Source of the DNA: a virus
Taxonomy: Duplodnaviria; Heunggongvirae; Uroviricota; Caudoviricetes
Reading direction: 5' to 3' (one strand)
Virus record (IMG/VR): IMGVR_UViG_2778261504_000010
Location: 1-47,426 of that record
DNA: 47,426 bases
Below the pieces are notes generated by a model, which ran no database searches, had not been told where the DNA came from, and saw only the letters and a list, made by a program, of their open reading frames with translations. Of this stretch, positions 4,496 to 39,070 are shown piece by piece; the first letter of the stretch is position 1, and each line of letters opens with the position of its first letter. A program made the translations under genes and the position numbers.

Positions 4496-5149
4496 TTAAT
4501 TATGCGGCAGGCCGGATATGCCGTGAGGGGTATCGTGTTTGTGTGTTCCGATTTTAACGCCATTAATGGTGACGTCAACGGAGGTAATCACACCACCCAC
4601 ATGGTTGATGTTGCCTTCAAAAGTGGCGGCGTATTCCTTGCCTCCACGGATGGCCATGCCACCGTTGCCGGTGATTTTACCTTCCACCGTCAGCTTATCG
4701 CTGGCCGTCAGTAACGGTGTCGTGAATGCGGCGTTCTCCTCTGCCTCAACCTCATAGCGTTTGCATTTCACCCGGTAAACGTCACATTCTGTTTCAATAA
4801 TCCGCCCGCGCTTCAGCACAATTTTCGCGCCTTCGTCGGTATACAGGGCCACCTCGCCGGGTTTCAGTTCCGTCAGGCGATATGCGCCGTGCTCGGTGGC
4901 CACGACGACGGTATGGGAGGTATTACCGTTCAGCGGAACGGCAATACCCATTGAGCCGGGCGGCGGGGATGTGGTGAGGCCGTAATGCTGAAAATACTCC
5001 GCACCGTCCAGCTGTTCGCCTGCCAGCCCGTTCAGCTGAAGCAACTGCACTTTGGTCGAACTGTCCACCGTACCGGTCACCACCCTGAATGCCTGGCGAA
5101 CGGCGGCCAGTGCCTGCTGTATGCGCTGATTAACCTTGTCCCACATCAT
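4496..5149 (-). CDS. baseplate assembly/spike protein (gpV-type, Mu gp45-like)
   Basis: 217-aa ORF; synteny. Confidence 0.65.
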   Translation of the reverse strand: MMWDKVNQRIQQALAAVRQAFRVVTGTVDSSTKVQLLQLNGLAGEQLDGAEYFQHYGLTTSPPPGSMGIAVPLNGNTSHTVVVATEHGAYRLTELKPGEVALYTDEGAKIVLKRGRIIETECDVYRVKCKRYEVEAEENAAFTTPLLTASDKLTVEGKITGNGGMAIRGGKEYAATFEGNINHVGGVITSVDVTINGVKIGTHKHDTPHGISGLPHN

Positions 5150-24097: not shown

Positions 24098-24565
24098 TTA
24101 ATCAAAAAGCCCCACCTGGGTGGGGCTTGTCAGCGAAGTCTGTTTTTGTCGTCGGTGTATCAACTGCCATGCGTACCGGTCTGAAATGCCGTAACGGGGA
24201 CAGAGCAGTGCCAGCGCCTGCCGGTGTGAGCATCCGTCTTTTACATGCTGCTGTAAATCAGCCATAAAACGGGTGTTACGCAGGGCACGTAATGCATGAT
24301 CGCAACGGGGAATGTAAAACGGAGCACCGCCAAGAAAGCGGATCAGTTTGTTGATTTCGTCTTCGGTCAGCACATCATGTAACAGGGCATGGACGCCGCC
24401 GGTGCGTTCAGCGTGTGCGCCGGTTTTACCGCTTAACGTCACGCCACCAAAAGAACGGATTAACCGGGTCAGGGCGGGGAAGCCAATCACGCTAATCAGT
24501 TGTTGCACGGAGTCGGGCAGCAGTGCCTGCGCATCGCGAAGATCTGTTTCACTGAAGGTCTGCAT
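24098..24565 (-). CDS. Mor/C-family transcriptional activator
   Basis: 155 aa with C-terminal helix-turn-helix-like segment GISDRYAWQLI; located just upstream of lysis and late genes. Confidence 0.6.
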   Translation of the reverse strand: MQTFSETDLRDAQALLPDSVQQLISVIGFPALTRLIRSFGGVTLSGKTGAHAERTGGVHALLHDVLTEDEINKLIRFLGGAPFYIPRCDHALRALRNTRFMADLQQHVKDGCSHRQALALLCPRYGISDRYAWQLIHRRQKQTSLTSPTQVGLFD

Positions 24566-24664: not shown

Positions 24665-25141
24665 TTATTTAGTCAGGTCTAGAATAACCAGGCCTTTTCT
24701 TGATTCTATTTGCTCTTTACCAAAAACAAACGAATCAAAACAATCCATACGATATTCTTTAAACTGATTTCTTGAACGTTCCAGAAACTGCCTGTCATCC
24801 CTGATAACGTTAGACCAGTAATCCTGTAGCTGGTTTTTCATTTTTATGCAGGAACCATACACAGGATCAAGCGGGTCGTCCCCCAGTTTACTGGCCTGTT
24901 CATCCAATTGTTTTAGTCCTTTTTTGATATTCTTCCACTCTTCAATATTTCCCTGCTGATACTGCGATGCAGCTTCTGGCATAGCGTAATAAAGTTTTCC
25001 ACTTTCCCGAAGCATCTGTTCAGCCAATGGCTTCATATCCTGATAACGTTTCAGTTCCTTTTGCGCCTGTTCCTCTGTCTGTGCCAGCACAGAACAAGAG
25101 AAAATAACCCCTACTAAACAAAACAACCATTTTTTCATCAT
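24665..25141 (-). CDS. secreted protein of unknown function (AT-rich cargo gene)
   Basis: 158 aa; N-terminal signal peptide MMKKWLFCLVGVIFSCSVLA; visibly AT-rich compared with neighbours. Confidence 0.6.
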   Translation of the reverse strand: MMKKWLFCLVGVIFSCSVLAQTEEQAQKELKRYQDMKPLAEQMLRESGKLYYAMPEAASQYQQGNIEEWKNIKKGLKQLDEQASKLGDDPLDPVYGSCIKMKNQLQDYWSNVIRDDRQFLERSRNQFKEYRMDCFDSFVFGKEQIESRKGLVILDLTK

Positions 25142-25536
25142 TGATTTCTCCTTCTTGAATCTTTAACCAGCGCCACCATCACCCCAAAAAGCTGTTCATC
25201 CGTCAGCCATTCGATCACATGTTGCTTATACATGTGAGATGCCAGTCCTTCTGCATACGCCCAGGAACGACCTGCATCAGCCAGCAACGCTTCAATTTTG
25301 GATAATACTGATTTTCTGCTCATTGCAACATGAGGGCGGCGACCTTTACCAGCGGGTGCCTTGCGCGGGAATCCCTGTTCGTGCATGTATTCCCGGATGA
25401 TGCGCAGTTCATCGAGATTGCAGCGTGTGGTGCTGGTTTTACCGGTCAGGCGGGCCAGCGTCTGGCGATAAAGGGCATCATCCCACCCCAGATACGCCTG
25501 ACCAGCTTTAATGGCCCCGATCATCTTTTTCAGCAT
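25138..25536 (-). CDS. GemA-like protein (Mu gp16 family)
   Basis: Start taken at internal MLKKMIGAIKAGQAYLGWDD; resembles GemA family as recalled. Confidence 0.55.
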   Translation of the reverse strand: MLKKMIGAIKAGQAYLGWDDALYRQTLARLTGKTSTTRCNLDELRIIREYMHEQGFPRKAPAGKGRRPHVAMSRKSVLSKIEALLADAGRSWAYAEGLASHMYKQHVIEWLTDEQLFGVMVALVKDSRRRNQ

Positions 25537-25786
25537 GTTTGTTATCCTCAAAACGCACGGTAAAACGTGAAACGCCAATCCCTGACAAGAACGCAGCGGC
25601 ACGGTCAAGAGACAACCACGTCTTGTAATCGCCACGGCGTTCCTGTAGAAAATAGGACACACCGGCGCGGCGATTCACAGCGAAGAGGTGATACACACCA
25701 CCGAACCGCTGCACGACGAACTCATCCACGCCACCGCTTTCAGCCTGTTGCCGAAAGGCTGCCATTCCGATTTGTTCAATCTTCAT
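25508..25786 (-). CDS. hypothetical protein
   Basis: ORF-track start at 25795 is a TTG; first ATG at 25786. Confidence 0.35.
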   Translation of the reverse strand: MKIEQIGMAAFRQQAESGGVDEFVVQRFGGVYHLFAVNRRAGVSYFLQERRGDYKTWLSLDRAAAFLSGIGVSRFTVRFEDNKHAEKDDRGH

Positions 25787-28943: not shown

Positions 28944-29157
28944 GAGGCGGCTTCCATCCTTTCAGGTGAGCATTAGCACAGAACTCTGCCCGGTGTTCTG
29001 CCCAGATACGACGCAGGGTGCTACACGGGCTTTGCGCTGCCTTACGCCACAGTTTTTCTGCCTCGTCATAATCGCCACGTTGTTCTGCTCTGGATGCACC
29101 CAGCGAATACGCCGCGCAACTATTTCCGGCTCTGTACTCTTTGATATCCTGATGCAT
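28924..29157 (-). CDS. hypothetical protein
   Basis: Start taken at MHQDIKEY just after the upstream stop; the longer ORF-track version overlaps the upstream gene by 110 nt. Confidence 0.35.
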   Translation of the reverse strand: MHQDIKEYRAGNSCAAYSLGASRAEQRGDYDEAEKLWRKAAQSPCSTLRRIWAEHRAEFCANAHLKGWKPPHERETL

Positions 29158-31656: not shown

Positions 31657-33702
31657 TTAACGGTTGTTTGTGCCGTCTTTCTTTAAATTGCGGTCACGCT
31701 CGGATGCAAAGAAATAAAGTTCTTCTTTTTTCTTTTCCTCCTTACGCTCCAGACCAAATCCAAAATTAAAGTCAGGTCTCTGCGTAATAGCCGGGGTAAG
31801 CTCGCGTTTAGCCTCTTCGATTTTCTGCGTGGCCCGTGCAATGCGGCCTCTGGCGCGTTTCTCCTGCTGCTGTTCGATAACAGCTTTCGGGAACGCATCA
31901 ACCTTATTACCGTTCCAGATGGCATCGCAGATATAAGAACCGTCCATCCGCCTGACAATCACGCTGTTTGCGTCGTGAATGTCGTAACAAACCCTGACTT
32001 CATTTCCGTGCTCTGCTGCCAGTTCTGTGGAGAAATAGATGTTTCTGAATAACACCACTTCACCGCGTCGCACCGTGCAGATGCTTTCCGGTCGGAACAT
32101 TTCATGCAGTTCTTCCGGCGACAGCATGTCGATTTCAGCCTTTTGCTCTTTTATCAGTTTCCGGCGATACGCTGCCGGGCTGTAATGTTCGCCATCCTCT
32201 TTGCGGGGAAGGCTGCTGTGTGGCCGGTTGTTATACCGTTTCACCTCCAGCTCTATTGCGGCCATCAGTTGCTCAAAAGTGGGGACTTCTCCCATCGCTT
32301 TAACCTGCCGCTTTGTCAGCTCTTTCCCTTTGTGGGTGGCCTTAATGGCTGACTGTGTGATGCGTTGCTGCATCATCACCGTTTCCTTGTCTGCATTTTT
32401 TGAGCAGTACGTCTGGAAACTCAGGGCCACATCTTTGGGTATTCCTTTGTTTGCCCGTTCTATTACCCCGCGCCCCTGCGGGTTACCAGGTGTCCCCGTG
32501 TGATGCTCCACACCCAGCCGGGGCAGAATCCCGGTAATATCGGCATCAAGCACCCGGTTTTTTTCACCGCCCCCGTTATCGGAGTAATAAATCAGCGGTA
32601 TTCCGTGTTGTGACATGCCATGACGCAATGCATCAGCAACGGCTATCACGTTCTCCGACAGGGACAGCGACCAGCCCACAATAAAGCGTTGCCCCGCATC
32701 CATAACCAGCGTCACTTCTGGCCGGAATGTATTCCCGGTGGCAGGGTTGAATGCCATCAGTTTCATACAGTGACCATCCCCGACCCATACCGCATTAACC
32801 GGTAATGTGCTCCAGTCGCGCCGCACAAAGGGATTGAGCGAACGCCAGGCTGAACCGGTGGAGCGGAAACGCTCTTTAACAATCACCGGGACGCTGCTTA
32901 ACACCCGTCTTACTGCGTGAACTGAAGGCAGTGCCGCCAGCATTCCCGCATCGTTCGCGTGTTTTTCATGCCACCAGGCTGAAAACTCGCGATACGCATA
33001 TTCAACGGTCGGGCGCTTCCATGAGCGATAGAACATAAAGAAATCGCTCAACCACCAGACCTGCTCCCACGGTGTTCCCTTATGATGACCGGGAGCCAGT
33101 AACGCCAGTAACTGATTGGCATCACCGCGCGCCATCAGCCAGGCGGAATACCATTCCTGTAAACTCCCTGTACTGACGCCAGTTCGCTTACCCTGTCGGG
33201 CATTGGCGGTATTACCGGCCACAATAACGCGCTCGGGCAAAGCCCCCTGGCGGATACCATCAACGATGTGTTTTATCGCTGCTGTCCTGGACATTCCTGC
33301 GTATTCACGCAGTTTATGCACTTCGGTAGCCAGCAATATCCGCGCATCAGCGATGGCCTTTTGCTTGTCGGTCAGTGCCTGGACTTCGCGTAATGCCAGT
33401 TCCGGGCATTTGACCATCACTTCCAGTTCATCACGAACGGTGACGTTCTTAACTGCCTTCTGCTCAACCACAACGGGCAGTTGTGTATCTTCCAGAATTT
33501 GCTGGGCTAGACGTTGGTGTAAAGCTTTCTGCACCTCCTCTGGAAAACTATCAATATGGTATTCAAAAGTAACACCTTTCACGCCAGCTCGTTGGCGGCT
33601 AACCCACCGTTGACGCTTTGCCATTCTAATCAGTGAGCTATTGTGTTTGGGGATACCAGCAATGCCCTGAAGTTCATTGAATGAATACCATTGGGATATC
33701 AT
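31657..33702 (-). CDS. MuA-like DDE transposase
   Basis: About 680 aa; N-terminus resembles the Mu winged-helix DNA-binding domain; start taken at MISQWYSF whose ATG overlaps the ner stop. Confidence 0.85.
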   Translation of the reverse strand: MISQWYSFNELQGIAGIPKHNSSLIRMAKRQRWVSRQRAGVKGVTFEYHIDSFPEEVQKALHQRLAQQILEDTQLPVVVEQKAVKNVTVRDELEVMVKCPELALREVQALTDKQKAIADARILLATEVHKLREYAGMSRTAAIKHIVDGIRQGALPERVIVAGNTANARQGKRTGVSTGSLQEWYSAWLMARGDANQLLALLAPGHHKGTPWEQVWWLSDFFMFYRSWKRPTVEYAYREFSAWWHEKHANDAGMLAALPSVHAVRRVLSSVPVIVKERFRSTGSAWRSLNPFVRRDWSTLPVNAVWVGDGHCMKLMAFNPATGNTFRPEVTLVMDAGQRFIVGWSLSLSENVIAVADALRHGMSQHGIPLIYYSDNGGGEKNRVLDADITGILPRLGVEHHTGTPGNPQGRGVIERANKGIPKDVALSFQTYCSKNADKETVMMQQRITQSAIKATHKGKELTKRQVKAMGEVPTFEQLMAAIELEVKRYNNRPHSSLPRKEDGEHYSPAAYRRKLIKEQKAEIDMLSPEELHEMFRPESICTVRRGEVVLFRNIYFSTELAAEHGNEVRVCYDIHDANSVIVRRMDGSYICDAIWNGNKVDAFPKAVIEQQQEKRARGRIARATQKIEEAKRELTPAITQRPDFNFGFGLERKEEKKKEELYFFASERDRNLKKDGTNNR

Positions 33703-33914
33703 AAGTATCTCTCCGGCCATATAGTTTCTGGCGACTCGCCAAGAGCTTCAGCGATAATTTTTTCTCCACGCGGATACGGCTTATCAAGAGCATTTTTCAA
33801 AGTGTACGGGGATAACGAGTTAAGCCTCCCTAAACCTGAAAGTGATAACCCTTTTTTTCGTAATTCAGCAATGACATCAGCTCGATGCCATCCGGTTCTT
33901 TTCTTGTGCTGCAT
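33699..33914 (-). CDS. Ner-like DNA-binding regulator
   Basis: 71 aa; WHRADVIAELRKKGLSLSGLGR...LKNALDKPYPRGEKIIAEALG closely resembles Mu Ner/Nlp. Confidence 0.8.
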   Translation of the reverse strand: MQHKKRTGWHRADVIAELRKKGLSLSGLGRLNSLSPYTLKNALDKPYPRGEKIIAEALGESPETIWPERYL

Positions 33915-34120
33915 TTCATGCCATCCTTATGAGTTAACTAGATAGCTACCTACACAAGTAGCTATAAGGCTACTTCGCAACAATAATGTGATTGCGTTGT
34001 GATTGCAAGCAAAAGCAACCACAAAAAATAGAATTTTTCTGCGCACTCTTGTTGCTTATTGATATTTAAGGTTTTTTGTGATTGCCGAAATATTGAGTCT
34101 GGCAATCATAAGGAGAGGAT
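33915..34120. promoter_or_regulatory. divergent promoter/operator region between ner and the c-like repressor
   Basis: 206 bp AT-rich; GTGATTGC at 33988, 33999, 34078; 7-bp inverted repeat gattgcc(34080-86)/ggcaatc(34101-07); palindrome tagctac...gtagcta (33942-33965). Confidence 0.55.
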
Positions 34121-34525
34121 ATGATTGCCAACAAAGAGTGGTTTACTGCACAAGAATTAGCCAACTTAGGACTACCTGGCTTCCCTAAAGATAAAAGTGG
34201 GATAAATCGTCGCGCCAACAAAGAAGGGTGGTTACGAAGGCAAAAAGCAAATGTTCGAGGGATCGCTTATGAATTTCATATTTCAGCCTTACCAATGGAA
34301 GCCCAACAAGTACTGGGGAACACTTCAGGTGTAGTTGGTGCTTCTATTGACATGGAGCTTTTAGAAAAGCTCATTGAATCAGTTGAGATTCTTTTAACTA
34401 AAAAACGAAAAAAAATGGAGCCACGAGAAAAAGCCAAGCTCATATCCATGTTGTACAAAGCATGTAAAAAATCAGACTCTATTGATGATGAAATTATCAG
34501 TAATATCATAGAATTAGTTGCATGA
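34121..34525 (+). CDS. c-like repressor (Mu-type winged-helix DNA-binding domain)
   Basis: 134 aa; WFTAQELANLGLPGFPKDKSGINRRANKEGWLRRQKANVRGIAYEFHISALPMEAQQVL parallels the N-terminus of the adjacent transposase; divergent from ner. Confidence 0.55.
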   Translation: MIANKEWFTAQELANLGLPGFPKDKSGINRRANKEGWLRRQKANVRGIAYEFHISALPMEAQQVLGNTSGVVGASIDMELLEKLIESVEILLTKKRKKMEPREKAKLISMLYKACKKSDSIDDEIISNIIELVA

Positions 34526-34540
34526 CAGAGAGGAACATTC

Positions 34541-35170
34541 ATGTCAAATGATAATGTGAGCAAATTCCCTACCACAAAAGGAAAAAAACTGATTGATGAG
34601 ATTATGGCCCAAATAGATCAGGAACCAGATATTGCAGTTCCTAGCAATATCAACAACCTGAGTATTTCAGGTACTGGAAACATTATAGGAAACAATAACA
34701 TACTACACATACAACAACCCGTCCCGCCCAAAAAGAAAGTTATTGTAAAGACAGGTGATGGTGTAATTAACGCTACTCAAAAGGCTCATTTGCAAGAACT
34801 TGTTAGGACGTTAGTTGAAATTCATACACAAGTAAAAAAGAGCAAACTGTCTTGGGGAGGCGCATGGAAAAAGATCTTAATCCCTTTAAAAATAAGTAGT
34901 TATCATGAAATCCCTAGCGTTCTCTATGAAAAAGCAGTCAAAATTCTGCAAAAAGAAATTGCTATCATAAAAAATATGAATTCTGCACCAAAGAAAGTTA
35001 GCAATTGGCGCTCATTGCAAATTAAAGCCATTCAAGCTCGTTGTAATGAACGAGGTTTACAAACTTGGCGTAAGGACTACATGCAAACTCATTTCGGTAA
35101 AGACTCGATGACTAAACTTACGGATAAAGAGCTACAAGCCTTGTACCGTGCTGTCATGGGAAAACGCTGA
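34541..35170 (+). CDS. hypothetical protein (AT-rich cargo gene downstream of repressor)
   Basis: 209-aa ORF, no hydrophobic segment, Lys/Asn/Ile-rich; no family recognised. Confidence 0.5.
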   Translation: MSNDNVSKFPTTKGKKLIDEIMAQIDQEPDIAVPSNINNLSISGTGNIIGNNNILHIQQPVPPKKKVIVKTGDGVINATQKAHLQELVRTLVEIHTQVKKSKLSWGGAWKKILIPLKISSYHEIPSVLYEKAVKILQKEIAIIKNMNSAPKKVSNWRSLQIKAIQARCNERGLQTWRKDYMQTHFGKDSMTKLTDKELQALYRAVMGKR

Positions 35171-35459
35171 TGGTTTTATAGGCCAAGAACCCTTGGCCTT
35201 ATCTAATTGATACAATCAACCCGATCTAAATCATCATAATCATCTTAAAGCCTGCTTGGTTAAATGTATTAAAAACAACCTAAGTTTGCTGCATAATCTG
35301 AGCAAATTCACCCAGAAAAAAACGTAAAAAAAAGCATTTTTGCGCATTTTCTTCAAAACGATCCAGAATCGGTGAAATCTCCCACATCCCGCACCAATCA
35401 AGGCCTACAGGCTTATATTGACTGCTCGGACTCAGCCCAGAATTGATCACCACCCCACA
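35171..35459. mobile_element. Mu-like prophage terminal region (transposase-binding end) and junction with host
   Basis: Non-coding; AAAACG/CGTTTT-type motifs at 35321-35370; element ends ...ccaca at 35459, where the ynfF reading frame breaks. Confidence 0.5.
35181..35205 (+). terminator. terminator-like hairpin after the 209-aa gene
   Basis: Stem ggccaag/cttggcc (35181-35198) followed by T-rich ttatctaatt. Confidence 0.4.
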
Positions 35460-36586
35460 CAACCCTGACAAATATAAGCAGGTTTTGCTGAACCGATCTC
35501 TCGTGCCAACTGGATAATTTTTTCTGCCGGGATGCTGGTGATTTTTGCTGCCCATTCCGGCGTTTTAGCTATGCCGTCAGGCCCTTCGCCCAGAATATAG
35601 GCTTTATAATGCGCGTTACGTGGTGCGTTGGCGGGCAGCGTTTTTTCATCGTAACCAACACAATATTTGTCGAGAAATGGCTGATCGACCATGTTTTCAG
35701 TAATCAGTACCCAGGCAATCGCACAGGCCAGTGCGCCATCGGTGCCAGGGCGAATGGGCAGCCATTCATCTTCACGCCCGGCAGCAGTGTCGTTATAACG
35801 TGGATCGATGACGATCATGCGTGCGTTTGAACGTTCGCGGGCTTGCTCGACGTAGTAAGTGACACCACCGCCGCTCATCCGCGTTTCTGCCGGGTTATTT
35901 CCGAACATAACGACCAGTTTCGTATTGGCGATATCATCCGGGCTGTTGCCATCATTGGCACCGAACATATAACTCATTGCGGCACTGATCTGTGCGGTAC
36001 TGTAGCTGCCATAGCGACTGAGAAAACCACCGCAAGAGTTCATCAGACGGTACGGGACGTTTGAGTTGGTGATGTTTCCGCCATCTACGCCTGTTCCGTA
36101 CAGGACATGTACAGCCTCATTGCCGTAATCTTTCAGGATCCGCCGAAGATTATCACTGATGGTATCCAGGGCTTCGTCCCAACTTATCCGTTCAAATTTA
36201 CCTTCACCGCGCTTGCCGACGCGCTTCATGGGATATTTCAACCTATCAGGATGATTCATCCGTCGGCGGATAGAGCGCCCGCGTAAACACGCTCGAACCT
36301 GATGGTTACCGTAGACGTCGTCACCTGTCGTATCAGACTCCACCCAGTACACGGTGTCATCTTTCACATGCAAACGTAACAGACAGCGGCTCCCGCAGTT
36401 AACGGTGCAGGAACTCCAGACCGCTTTCTCTTCTACCGGAGCCTCTGCCGCCCGGACCATTTGGGAAAATGGCAGAGTGAAAGCACTGCTTGCCAGCGCA
36501 AGACTGCCAAGTGCGGAGGTTTTCATCAGACTTCTACGGCTGATTTCAGCCTTCATGAGCGCCTCTGTGGTATGGATTTTCATCAT
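35450..36586 (-). pseudogene. ynfF: ynfF', 5' fragment of DMSO-reductase-family catalytic subunit truncated by the prophage
   Basis: 378 aa with Tat motif SRRSLMK; paralogous to the full-length downstream gene up to ...AKPAYICQG, then CVGW-stop where the paralogue continues WGPQRQ. Confidence 0.75.
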
Positions 36587-36643: not shown

Positions 36644-39070
36644 TTATATTTTTTCGATCTCGACCAGATTAGTGTGCTGCGGGTTTCCCTTCGCCAGTGG
36701 TGAAGGGCGCAGAGTGGTTAGCGTATTCACACAGCCGCCATGGTCGATTTTATCGCCAGACATATTGGCCTCGTGCCAGGCTCCCTGGCCCATAGCGCTA
36801 ACTCCAGGGAGAATACGTGGTGTTACTTTGGCTGGTAGCCGAACTTCGCCACGATGGTTAAACACCCGCACCATATCGCCGTTGGCAATCCCACGTTTCT
36901 GCGCATCTATAGGGTTGATCCACACCTCCTGACGGCAGGCAGCCTTCAGGAGATCAATATTGCCGTAGGTCGAGTGAGTACGGGATTTGTAATGGAAACC
37001 AAACAGTTGCAGTGGGAAGGTTCTACGTTCAGGGGAGTTCCAGCCTTCAAAGGTTGAGGCATAAACTGGCAATGGGCTTATCACTTCATCTTTTTCCAGT
37101 TCCCAGGTACGGGCAATTTCCGCCAGCCTGCTGGAATAAATTTCAATCTTACCGGAAGGCGTTTTAAGTGGATTTGCCTCGGGGTCGTCACGAAATGCTT
37201 TGTAGGCGACAAAATGGCCATTGGGATCTTTACGCTTATAGATACCCATTTTTTTCAGTTCGTCGTAAGACGGTAACGCCGGATCTTTGGCAAGCATTTT
37301 GGCGTACAGATGTTGTAACCATTGTTCCTGCGTGCGACCTTCTGTGAACTTTTGATAGACGTCAGGTCCAAGACGTTTCGCGACTTCACTCAGGATCCAG
37401 TAAATCGGTTTGCGTTCGAATTTTTCGCTGGTGACAGGCTGGAGGAAAATGAGATATCCCATGTTACCGGCGTAGTCGTTAGGAATAATATCTTCCTGCT
37501 CAACGGTCATCAGGTCTGGCAGCAGAATGTCGGCATATTTTGCCGATGAGGTCATAAAGTTTTCGATGATCACAATCATTTCGCATTTCGATTCGTCCTG
37601 CAGAATTTCATGCGTTTTGTTGATGTCAGAATGCTGATTAACGAGGGTATTTCCCGCGTAGTTCCAGATGAACTTAATGGGCACATCCAGTTTATCTTTG
37701 CCGCGGACGCCGTCGCGGATTGCCGTCATTTGCGGACCATGATCGATAGCATCTGTCCAGCTGAAGCAGGAGATTGACGTTTTGACCGGATTATCCAGCA
37801 CCGGCAGGCGTTCTATGGTAATGGTATAGGTCGATTCACGCGCGCCACTATTTCCGCCGCTGATGCCGACATTGCCCGTCAAAATAGGTAACATAGCAAT
37901 AGCGCGTGCAGTCAGTTCGCCGTTTGCCTGGCGTTGCGGCCCCCAGCCCTGGCAGATATAAGCGGGTTTTGCTGTGCCAATTTCACGCGCCAGTTTGATG
38001 ATACGGTCTACCGGGATACCGGTAATTTGCGAAGCCCACTGCGGCGTTTTCGCTGTGTTATCATCACCTTCACCAAGAATATAGGCTTTATAGTGACCAT
38101 TTTTGGGTGCATCTGCGGGTAAGGTTTTTTCGTCATAGCCGACGCAGTATTTATCGAGAAAAGGTTGATCAACGAGATTTTCGTTAATCAATACCCAGGC
38201 AATACCCGCAACCAGCGCGGCATCGGTGCCCGGGCGAATAGGGAGCCATTCATCTTCACGACCAGCAGCCGTATCGGTATATCGCGGATCGATAACAATC
38301 ATTTTGGCGTTCGATTTCTCGCGCGCTTTTTCAAGAAGATAAGTGATGCCAACGCCGCTCATGCGGGTTTCTGCCGGGTTGTTACCAAACATCACGACCA
38401 GCTTGCTGTTTTCAATATCCGTGGTGCTGTTGCCATCATTACTGCCGTAGGTGTAGGGCATGGCACAGGAAATTTGCGCGGTGCTGTAGGAGCCATACTG
38501 ATTGAGTGAACCGCCGTAGCAGTTCATCAGGCGTTTGACCGCCGAGGCTGATGGCGAAGAGCGGGTCATATTGCCGCCAACAATCCCCGAAGAGTACTGA
38601 ATATATACAGCCTCATTGCCATATTGTTCGACGGTTTTTTTCAGGCTACTGGCGATAGTATCCAGGGCTTCATCCCAGCTAATCCGTTCGAATTTGCCTT
38701 CACCGCGTGTACCCACGCGTTTCATTGGGTAATTCAAGCGATCGGGATGATTAATACGCCGGCGGATGGAGCGACCGCGCAAACAGGCGCGTACCTGATG
38801 GTTGCCGTACTCATCGCTGCCGGTATTGTCAGTTTCCACCCAGGTCACTTCATTATCTTTAACATGTAGACGAAGTGCACAGCGGCTACCACAGTTGACG
38901 GAACAGGCACCCCAGATCACTTTTTCGCTGGCCTGTTGTACCGTTGCCGCTGCACTGCGCAGGGTGAACGGTAAAGAAAAACCGCCTGCAGCCAGCGCCA
39001 GAGAACCTATCGCGGTTGATTTAACGAGTGTTCTGCGGCTGATGCCCACCATTCGGTCATTTTTGGACAT
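36644..39070 (-). CDS. ynfE: DMSO/selenate reductase-family molybdoenzyme catalytic subunit
   Basis: 808 aa; Tat signal SRRTLVK; Cys cluster CSVNCGSRC; promoter-proximal of the ynfEF pair. Confidence 0.85.
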   Translation of the reverse strand: MSKNDRMVGISRRTLVKSTAIGSLALAAGGFSLPFTLRSAAATVQQASEKVIWGACSVNCGSRCALRLHVKDNEVTWVETDNTGSDEYGNHQVRACLRGRSIRRRINHPDRLNYPMKRVGTRGEGKFERISWDEALDTIASSLKKTVEQYGNEAVYIQYSSGIVGGNMTRSSPSASAVKRLMNCYGGSLNQYGSYSTAQISCAMPYTYGSNDGNSTTDIENSKLVVMFGNNPAETRMSGVGITYLLEKAREKSNAKMIVIDPRYTDTAAGREDEWLPIRPGTDAALVAGIAWVLINENLVDQPFLDKYCVGYDEKTLPADAPKNGHYKAYILGEGDDNTAKTPQWASQITGIPVDRIIKLAREIGTAKPAYICQGWGPQRQANGELTARAIAMLPILTGNVGISGGNSGARESTYTITIERLPVLDNPVKTSISCFSWTDAIDHGPQMTAIRDGVRGKDKLDVPIKFIWNYAGNTLVNQHSDINKTHEILQDESKCEMIVIIENFMTSSAKYADILLPDLMTVEQEDIIPNDYAGNMGYLIFLQPVTSEKFERKPIYWILSEVAKRLGPDVYQKFTEGRTQEQWLQHLYAKMLAKDPALPSYDELKKMGIYKRKDPNGHFVAYKAFRDDPEANPLKTPSGKIEIYSSRLAEIARTWELEKDEVISPLPVYASTFEGWNSPERRTFPLQLFGFHYKSRTHSTYGNIDLLKAACRQEVWINPIDAQKRGIANGDMVRVFNHRGEVRLPAKVTPRILPGVSAMGQGAWHEANMSGDKIDHGGCVNTLTTLRPSPLAKGNPQHTNLVEIEKI

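Follow-up and report, generated by a model that had tools for sequence, protein, structure and literature searches.

The Mu-like prophage in the window (the whole stretch of DNA analyzed here, 47,426 nucleotides of the IMG/VR virus record IMGVR_UViG_2778261504_000010) carries an AT-rich gene, ORF209, directly downstream of its c-like repressor gene, and we tentatively propose that this gene encodes an accessory subunit of a split repressor, a trans-acting subunit or co-repressor that would stabilize repression. ORF209 is a real gene under purifying selection, and it is inherited together with c, since composition and mosaic boundaries are common to both. The family to which it belongs is already catalogued as PHROG 17822; what is new, as far as the searchable literature shows, is a conserved split or fused repressor module in transposable phages. 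Exit from lysogeny among Mu-like phages is poorly understood outside Mu itself, in which the known lever is proteolysis of the repressor by ClpXP/Lon. A conserved companion protein that is inherited alongside the repressor, and that is sometimes fused to it, would offer a testable handle on immunity and induction in widespread transposable prophages.

ORF209 runs from 34541 to 35170 on the plus strand (ATG start, 209 aa, pI 10.0), beginning 15 nt after the stop codon of c (34121 to 34525, plus strand), and 289 nt separate its 3' end from the left end of the prophage at 35459. The initial annotation had placed the gene between the repressor and the prophage end in the repressor's orientation, which these coordinates bear out, and its start at 34541 and length of 209 aa also stand, but the gene ends at 35170 rather than at 35205, a coordinate that had taken in a hairpin downstream of the stop codon (35180 to 35199, plus strand). 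This hairpin, with an 8-bp GC-rich stem, a weak U-tract, and a computed folding energy of about -15 kcal/mol (z -3.4), is a candidate terminator of the c-ORF209 transcript and was not called in a terminator scan. The 15-nt gap, ORF209's own ribosome-binding site (GAGAGGA, 7 nt 5' of the ATG), and the downstream hairpin together suggest that c and ORF209 are probably cotranscribed. A weak promoter-like site lies at 34482 to 34509, inside the 3' end of c. ORF209 has orthologues in Escherichia coli (97% identical), in Salmonella enterica (83%), and in metagenomic sequence (67%); against the Salmonella orthologue dS is 0.92, dN is 0.077, and dN/dS is 0.084, and the core of the protein is more constrained (dN/dS 0.07) than its N-terminal third (0.13).

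The genes around the pair are those of a Mu-like immunity region. The 134-aa c-like repressor (PF02316, E 3e-18; phrog_7148, transcriptional repressor) combines a Mu-type winged-helix DNA-binding domain with a conserved C-terminal domain of about 60 aa that ends in ...ELVA. Divergent from c and ORF209 lie a 71-aa ner-like early regulator gene (33699 to 33914, minus strand; PF13693 HTH_35, E 3e-25; phrog_769), the MuA transposase gene (31657 to 33720; PF02316 over MuA residues 15 to 147), and a gene for a MuB-like ATPase. The ner-c intergenic region holds operator-like repeats of the form (T/A)TGTGATTGC at 33986 to 34128, in direct and inverted copies (families D3/D7; inverted pairs I3, I8, and I17), the last of which overlaps the start codon of c; from this arrangement they may act as operators. 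Across the entire window the operator-like motif GTGATTGC shows no enrichment (4 matches, with 2.6 expected), and it is notable only for being clustered between ner and c. Beyond ORF209 there follows a conserved Mu-like left end, comprising attL and the transposase-binding region (35312 to 35459, minus strand), which finishes in 5'-TG on the minus strand and meets the host at 35459/35460. Over its last ~148 bp it shares 83 to 88% identity with the termini of E. coli Mu-like prophages that occupy other insertion sites, and the prophage interrupts ynfF, since the sequence from 35460 onward is 100% identical to that E. coli gene. In Mu itself c occupies 339 to 863 with zero genes between it and the left end, exactly as the initial annotation had stated.

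That annotation took ORF209 for an AT-rich insertion beside the repressor. The gene is indeed AT-rich (GC 0.371), but so are c (0.380), the operator region (0.364), and ner (0.440), and the composition belongs to an entire 1.8-kb cassette (33532 to 35311; the N-terminal end of MuA, ner, operators, c, and ORF209) with a GC content of 0.387, whereas the remainder of the prophage stands at 0.541. Mosaic boundaries tell the same story. By megablast, 59 complete E. coli genomes contain Mu-like prophages that are 94 to 98% identical to positions 29000 to ~33532 of the window; this identity breaks off within the 5' part of the MuA gene (query positions 4533 to 4582, equivalent to 33532 to 33581 of the window, setting the left mosaic boundary at ~33533) and returns only over the last ~148 bp. 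The 5' part of MuA that falls within the divergent cassette (33532 to 33720, minus strand; GC 0.45) encodes the N-terminal operator/enhancer-binding region. The c-ORF209 segment has zero matches among 5,426 complete E. coli genomes, sensitive blastn included. In the nearest sibling prophage, that of strain E423 (backbone 97.7% identical), and in another relative, the same slot holds a single repressor of 192 or 225 aa directly at the prophage end. ORF209 and c have diverged in step from their Salmonella copies (83% and 87% amino acid identity, respectively).

Because the divergence is cassette-wide, and because the siblings carry a single repressor in the same slot, ORF209 is not a point insertion; it arrived within a complete heteroimmune cassette that was exchanged as a unit for a single-repressor cassette. 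The insertion claim is therefore correct insofar as the gene is absent from Mu and from sibling E. coli prophages, but it fails as a claim about a lone gene. A parallel is offered by Mu and D108, which are non-homologous across c, ner, and the 5' part of A. We also considered whether ORF209 might be the split-off C-terminal domain of an ordinary Mu-like repressor, and ruled this out, as it has no similarity to the 225-aa and 192-aa sibling repressors.

No family was recognized when the gene was first described, a statement now superseded by the homology searches and structure prediction called for at that time, which gave a PHROG match and an AF2 model with an all-helical core. ORF209 matches the profile of PHROG 17822 over its full length (E 1.7e-22; residues 23 to 208 against positions 79 to 263 of 267), as do all 69 of 69 relatives, although the entry has no function, context, or domain description. 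A family profile built from eight close homologues and searched against 1.84 billion cluster representatives returned 538 proteins at E <= 1e-3, of which 282 reach E <= 1e-10; most are about 200 aa long, and the family has at least 538 clusters at 50% identity. A context can now be given both to this family and to the ORF6C and GemA N-terminal modules. ORF209 itself has no significant match in Pfam, NCBIfam, or PADLOC, in a sequence search of solved structures (best E 0.24), or in a Foldseek search of the PDB (best E 2.1), and a literature search found no paper that deals with the function of ORF6C or with this position in Mu-like phage genomes.

A more distant kinship is visible through the relatives. 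The top Foldseek match in BFVD is an ORF6C-domain protein (E 8.7e-5), and 40 of the 69 relatives match Pfam ORF6C (PF10552) over their first three helices at E < 0.01, several of them above the 22-bit cut-off (among them P0150, 33.1 bits; P0139, 31.8; P0080, 31.1). The corresponding part of ORF209 is residues ~75 to 146, and its membership in ORF6C holds by transitivity only, because the relatives match and ORF209, with no ORF6C match in Pfam at E <= 1, does not. In many phage proteins with an anti-repressor annotation, which places them in the lysis-lysogeny switch, ORF6C forms the C-terminal module behind an N-terminal Bro-N, KilA-N, or ORF6N domain, and we counted this kinship for the split repressor. 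ORF209 differs in having no such N-terminal domain and in carrying an extra GemA-N-like C-terminal part. The C-terminal end of 19 of the 69 relatives matches the first ~35 positions of the GemA Pfam. ORF209 scores below threshold against the same profile (PF06252; 15.3 bits with a cut-off of 27, positions 7 to 33 of 119), and hhalign places its residues 157 to 205 on residues 3 to 52 of Mu GemA (gp16) with an E of 5e-4, the pattern I-K-x-I ... G-K-x-S-x-x-x-L-T-x-x-E-L being common to the last ~50 residues of ORF209 and the GemA N-terminus. The likeness stops after the first ~50 of the 119 profile positions. GemA belongs to the early lytic genes, and a complete copy is also present in the prophage. 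The family core would thus be an ORF6C-type part related to one known module and, after it, a part related to the Mu GemA N-terminus.

The predicted structure agrees with this division. In an AF2 model based on the eight-sequence alignment, residues 1 to 70 are disordered and residues 78 to 207 form six helices with pLDDT of ~81 to 94, interrupted by a dip at residues ~148 to 155. The first three-helix part, of ORF6C type (residues ~75 to 146; 34763 to 34978, plus strand), has helices at 78 to 98, 105 to 116, and 126 to 144 with pLDDT of 81 to 91; the second, like the Mu GemA N-terminus (residues 157 to 205; 35009 to 35155, plus strand), has a fold that weakly resembles the Red-beta C-terminal domain. 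Upstream of the core, the model gives an N-terminal amphipathic helix at low pLDDT (residues 16 to 25; 34586 to 34615, plus strand), followed by a disordered Gly/Asn-rich segment, ISGTGNIIGNNNI, and a Pro/Lys linker (residues ~36 to 65; 34646 to 34735, plus strand; pLDDT < 50). Relatives share this layout: an acidic N-terminus with a short helix, a Lys/Pro-rich linker, a Gly/Asn-rich segment (I.G.GN.VG.GN, within which G.GN..G.GN is conserved family-wide), and a core of ~140 aa bearing the motifs VKTGxGxIxAxQK, SYHEIP, SAPKKxxxWR, and FGxxSxxxLxDxEL. The N-terminal helix is conserved in stand-alone members with the consensus K-I-V-R-L-I-K-E-A; a strict regular expression for it picks out 51 of 118 stand-alone members, where shuffled sequences would give 1.3, and ORF209, whose KKLIDEIMAQ fails the strict pattern, resembles the motif by eye. 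The protein is strongly basic, like its family (median pI 9.9; above 9 in 99% of members), has no membrane segment (maximum 19-residue hydropathy 0.67), and contains neither an HExxH nor any other catalytic motif that we could find. Such a combination fits a regulator that binds nucleic acid or protein.

Of all the evidence that ties this family to phage immunity, gene context is the strongest. In 12 of the 12 contexts examined, the stand-alone family gene lies directly downstream of, and co-oriented with, a putative transposable-phage repressor; these contexts comprise the window, the Salmonella loci L002/L003, L004, Ralstonia phage RS138 (L001), five IMG/VR contigs (L007 to L011), L020/L021, and Cupriavidus basilensis (L022). 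The partner repressors, all putative, are 134 to 167 aa long and have as their DNA-binding fold a Mu-c winged helix in some cases and an Xre HTH in others, and the pair is divergent from ner-like and Mu transposase genes. The gap between the two genes is 5 to 40 nt except in RS138, where 313 nt separate ORF3, a "transcriptional regulator," from the family gene ORF2. L004, L008, and L009, which have BcepMu-like layouts, carry the pair at an internal position with lysis or late genes after it, so the association is with the repressor and not with the genome end. The sample is small, at ~17 loci, and its taxonomic breadth is thin because a scan of genome contigs gave only one family locus, that of Cupriavidus.

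In other phages the family domain is fused to the repressor HTH. At least 11 cluster representatives carry an HTH_3 domain and the family domain in a single polypeptide, and relatives of one such fusion on four viral contigs (L012 to L015) all take the place of the repressor at the end of the phage. Each is transcribed divergently from ner, MuA, and MuB and is the outermost gene, followed by host DNA or the contig end; no second repressor candidate was found at these four loci. By adjacency, orientation, and fusion in relatives, ORF209 has the attributes of a component of the proposed split/fused repressor module (HTH plus ORF6C/GemA-N) of transposable phages. The split-type repressors share a further feature, the ~60-aa C-terminal domain, whatever their DNA-binding fold (residues 64 to 134 of the window's c against residues 67 to 137 of the Xre-type L007 repressor, E 5.6e-11; against the Xre-type L011 repressor, E 8.7e-10), and the HTH-fused family proteins do not have it. 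When this domain alone was searched against a set of 5.8 billion proteins it returned five small proteins, and in two of the three readable contexts (L023 and L024; hmmsearch E ~1e-73) a family member follows the domain-bearing repressor at 10 to 13 nt. In the third, L025, the domain-bearing repressor has no family member downstream, which weakens the idea that the domain is strictly the docking site of ORF209.

We favor, with due caution, an explanation in which ORF209 is the partner without an HTH in a two-gene immunity (repressor) module that some transposable phages carry. One lysogenic transcript would yield both the 134-aa c-like repressor and ORF209, whose basic helical core would be the counterpart of the C-terminal domain that is fused to the repressor HTH in related Mu-like phages. 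Supplied in trans, and probably tethered through its conserved N-terminal helix and flexible linker, ORF209 may contribute higher-order assembly, extra DNA contacts, or both, and so stabilize repression and immunity. The trans-acting reading follows from the correspondence between the ORF209 core and a domain that relatives attach covalently to the HTH, and the pattern of fusion and fission, the invariable adjacency, and the cassette-wise inheritance all point to ORF209 acting together with the repressor and not as separate cargo. That ORF209 binds the repressor, that it acts as a co-repressor, and that its effect would be stabilizing and not destabilizing are matters we infer. An extra subunit is not a general requirement, because the sibling E. 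coli prophages manage with a single repressor of 192 to 225 aa. Against a split repressor we counted L025, the single repressors of the siblings, the fusion of the family domain to TIR, and the weak promoter-like site within c.

The closest rival, which we regard as possible though rather unlikely, is that ORF209 is an induction sensor or controller of anti-repressor type, coexpressed with the repressor and silent until a signal arrives, at which point it would inactivate the repressor, perhaps by exposing or masking the ssrA-like tail of the latter (...ELVA) to ClpXP. C-terminal motifs recognized by ClpX include the LVA tag, and proteolysis of the Mu repressor is under ClpXP control; 8 of 10 split-type repressors end in such an ssrA/ClpX-like signature, hydrophobic-(V/I/A)-A-COOH (...LVA, ...KIA, or ...TAA). 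However, the fused repressors have no LVA-ended domain, so tail gating cannot be the family-wide function. In its layout, with a short conserved peptide tied by a flexible linker to a folded domain, ORF209 is like protease adaptors such as SspB. The ORF6C domain is also shared with anti-repressor-annotated PHROGs, matched by 26 (PHROG 245) and 25 (PHROG 2127) of the 69 relatives as well as through PHROGs 373 and 463, but these labels are annotations only, the matches extend only over the common C-terminal ORF6C part, and ORF209 has no N-terminal domain of Bro-N, KilA-N, or AntA type as an Ant-type protein would. A final argument is the operon logic of ICEBs1, where ImmA is coexpressed with ImmR from the same operon and fused forms are known. 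The co-repressor Lxc of P1 is another second protein that modulates an immunity repressor. To Lxc and ImmR/ImmA the likeness is one of functional analogy only, since ORF209 has no kinship with them in sequence or fold, and the absence of a Peptidase_M78 domain or HEXXH peptidase motif sets it apart from ImmA/IrrE-type metallopeptidases.

A role in superinfection exclusion or anti-phage defense, with ORF209 riding in the repressor operon as rexAB rides with lambda cI, was the suggestion of the initial annotation, and we now judge it improbable. Position and orientation do favor expression in the lysogen, and the cassette is AT-rich. Searches gave the idea no direct support: PADLOC-DB v2 holds zero families that match ORF209 or the repressor at E <= 1, no enzymatic motif is apparent, and ORF209 has no membrane segment of the kind expected for rexAB/sieB-type exclusion, although not all exclusion proteins are membrane-bound. 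Cargo slots are usually variable, whereas here one family fills one slot across very distant phages, and its fusion to a repressor HTH in at least 11 clusters, at the repressor locus where inspected (L012 to L015), together with its pairing with repressors, points instead to a role in the repressor module. TIR domains are typical of abortive-infection effectors, and two relatives, P0055 and P0156, carry one at their N-terminus (E 7e-18). This fusion is rare, being confined to two clusters, and recent, given that the family domain of P0055 shares 61% identity with a stand-alone copy carried by a phage in the same metagenomes; a search for TIR fusions in viral contigs found none. P0055 adjoins a CoiA_N-like gene and not a repressor, so the domain can serve other effectors and is not confined to repressor modules, and this rare fusion suggests that it can act as a recognition module, a point of interest to the phage-defense field. 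There is a precedent in the Mu-like Pseudomonas phage Fc02, whose exclusion genes are part of the repressor transcript (PMC9936078). ORF209 likewise probably lies in the repressor transcription unit, as do lambda rexAB and Fc02 olg1/gene 10 (PMC9936078), but it has no homology to these genes, it is without membrane segments, and its family alone is fused to a repressor HTH. Together, these data caution against labeling every AT-rich, repressor-adjacent gene a defense "moron."

Elements of these readings could be combined into a previously undescribed two-component repressor, a scenario that we consider a long shot. The helix-linker-ORF6C/GemA-N protein would dock on the C-terminal domain of the repressor and control access to its ssrA-like ...LVA tail, giving RecA-independent, ClpXP-gated induction, and a host TIR effector would have captured the sensing domain as a phage-detecting defense protein. 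Least probable of all is a GemA-like or recombination-mediator-like host-interaction protein whose three-helix bundle binds DNA ends, SSB, or other DNA-metabolism factors, an idea to which the weak fold similarity to the Red-beta C-terminal domain lends itself. A minor resemblance, extending over the whole domain, is to the flagellar regulator Flk (NF007987; ORF209, E 1.3e-3; 22 of the 69 relatives, best E 2.9e-6). ORF209 scores 18.1 bits against a cut-off of 353 and differs from Flk in its phage context and in having no membrane anchor, while one relative, P0109, does carry a Flk-like C-terminal membrane anchor.

The immunity cassette, which comprises the N-terminus of MuA, the divergent regulator gene ner, the candidate operators, the Mu-c-type repressor gene c, and the 209-aa gene downstream of c (ORF209), is delimited by mosaic boundaries at window 33532-33581 on the left and 35300-35312 on the right. 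The left boundary lies inside MuA, at the 5' end of the gene, and the N-terminal DNA-binding region of the transposase has therefore been exchanged along with c and ner. Mu and D108 differ by a similar exchange, in which this region of the transposase likewise moved with c and ner. No copy of the entire cassette was present among 5,426 complete Escherichia coli genomes.

The ner-c intergenic region contains a cluster of (T/A)TGTGATTGC repeats (window 33986-34128), with four direct and two to three inverted copies, one of which overlaps the c start codon. These repeats are putative operators for this immunity type. On the plus strand, the 3' end of c contains a sigma-70-like site (TTGATG-16-TATCAT; 34482-34509), and ORF209 starts 32 nt downstream of it. 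This predicted site could support independent transcription of ORF209, but the count of sigma-70-like sites in the surrounding region is not above that of shuffled sequence.

The C-terminus of the c-like repressor is encoded at window 34510-34525. Among ten repressors that share a common C-terminal domain of ~60 aa, eight (those of the window, RS138 [L001], the Salmonella prophage [L002], and loci L004, L007, L008, L009, and L020) end in ...ELVA, ...KLVA, ...RLVA, ...KIA, or ...TAA-COOH. These ...LVA, ...KIA, and ...TAA tails resemble the ssrA-type tail recognized by ClpX, which is LAA or LVA. By analogy with Mu, the stability of these repressors could be gated by proteolysis via the ssrA-like tail.

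The prophage encodes its own homologues of GemA (25138-25662, minus strand) and Mor (24098-24565, minus strand). This GemA is full-length (PF06252, E value of 2.5e-18), and the GemA-N-like end of ORF209 is thus a second copy of the module in the same genome. The HTH-fused member P0109 (334 aa) ends in hydrophobic membrane segments. Of the 69 family members, 22 weakly match Flk (NCBIfam), a tail-anchored flagellar regulator, and these matches suggest that an ORF6C/GemA-N-type module like that of the family makes up the cytoplasmic part of Flk. In P0055 and P0156 (loci L018 and L019), the family domain carries a TIR_2 domain fused at its N-terminus, and on these short metagenomic contigs the fusion gene adjoins a 360-aa CoiA_N-like gene. 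The closest stand-alone relative (P0157, 61% identical) resides in a Mu-like phage from the same two metagenomes. The TIR fusion may have arisen when a host acquired a phage domain for use as a sensor.

A same-strand ORF of 48 to 66 aa follows the family gene in RS138 (5445-5591 of L001), L004 (6630-6791), and the Salmonella prophage (6948-7148 of L002); the window has no comparable ORF from 35171 to the prophage end. The prophage inserted into ynfF, which encodes a selenate/tellurate reductase subunit, and a 379-codon 5' fragment of ynfF remains downstream of an intact ynfE (35460-36586 and 36644-39070, both minus strand). The right end of the prophage and the target duplication lie beyond the window, and a minus-strand tail-fibre-like ORF with a collagen-like Gly-X-Y repeat (1-170) continues past the window start.
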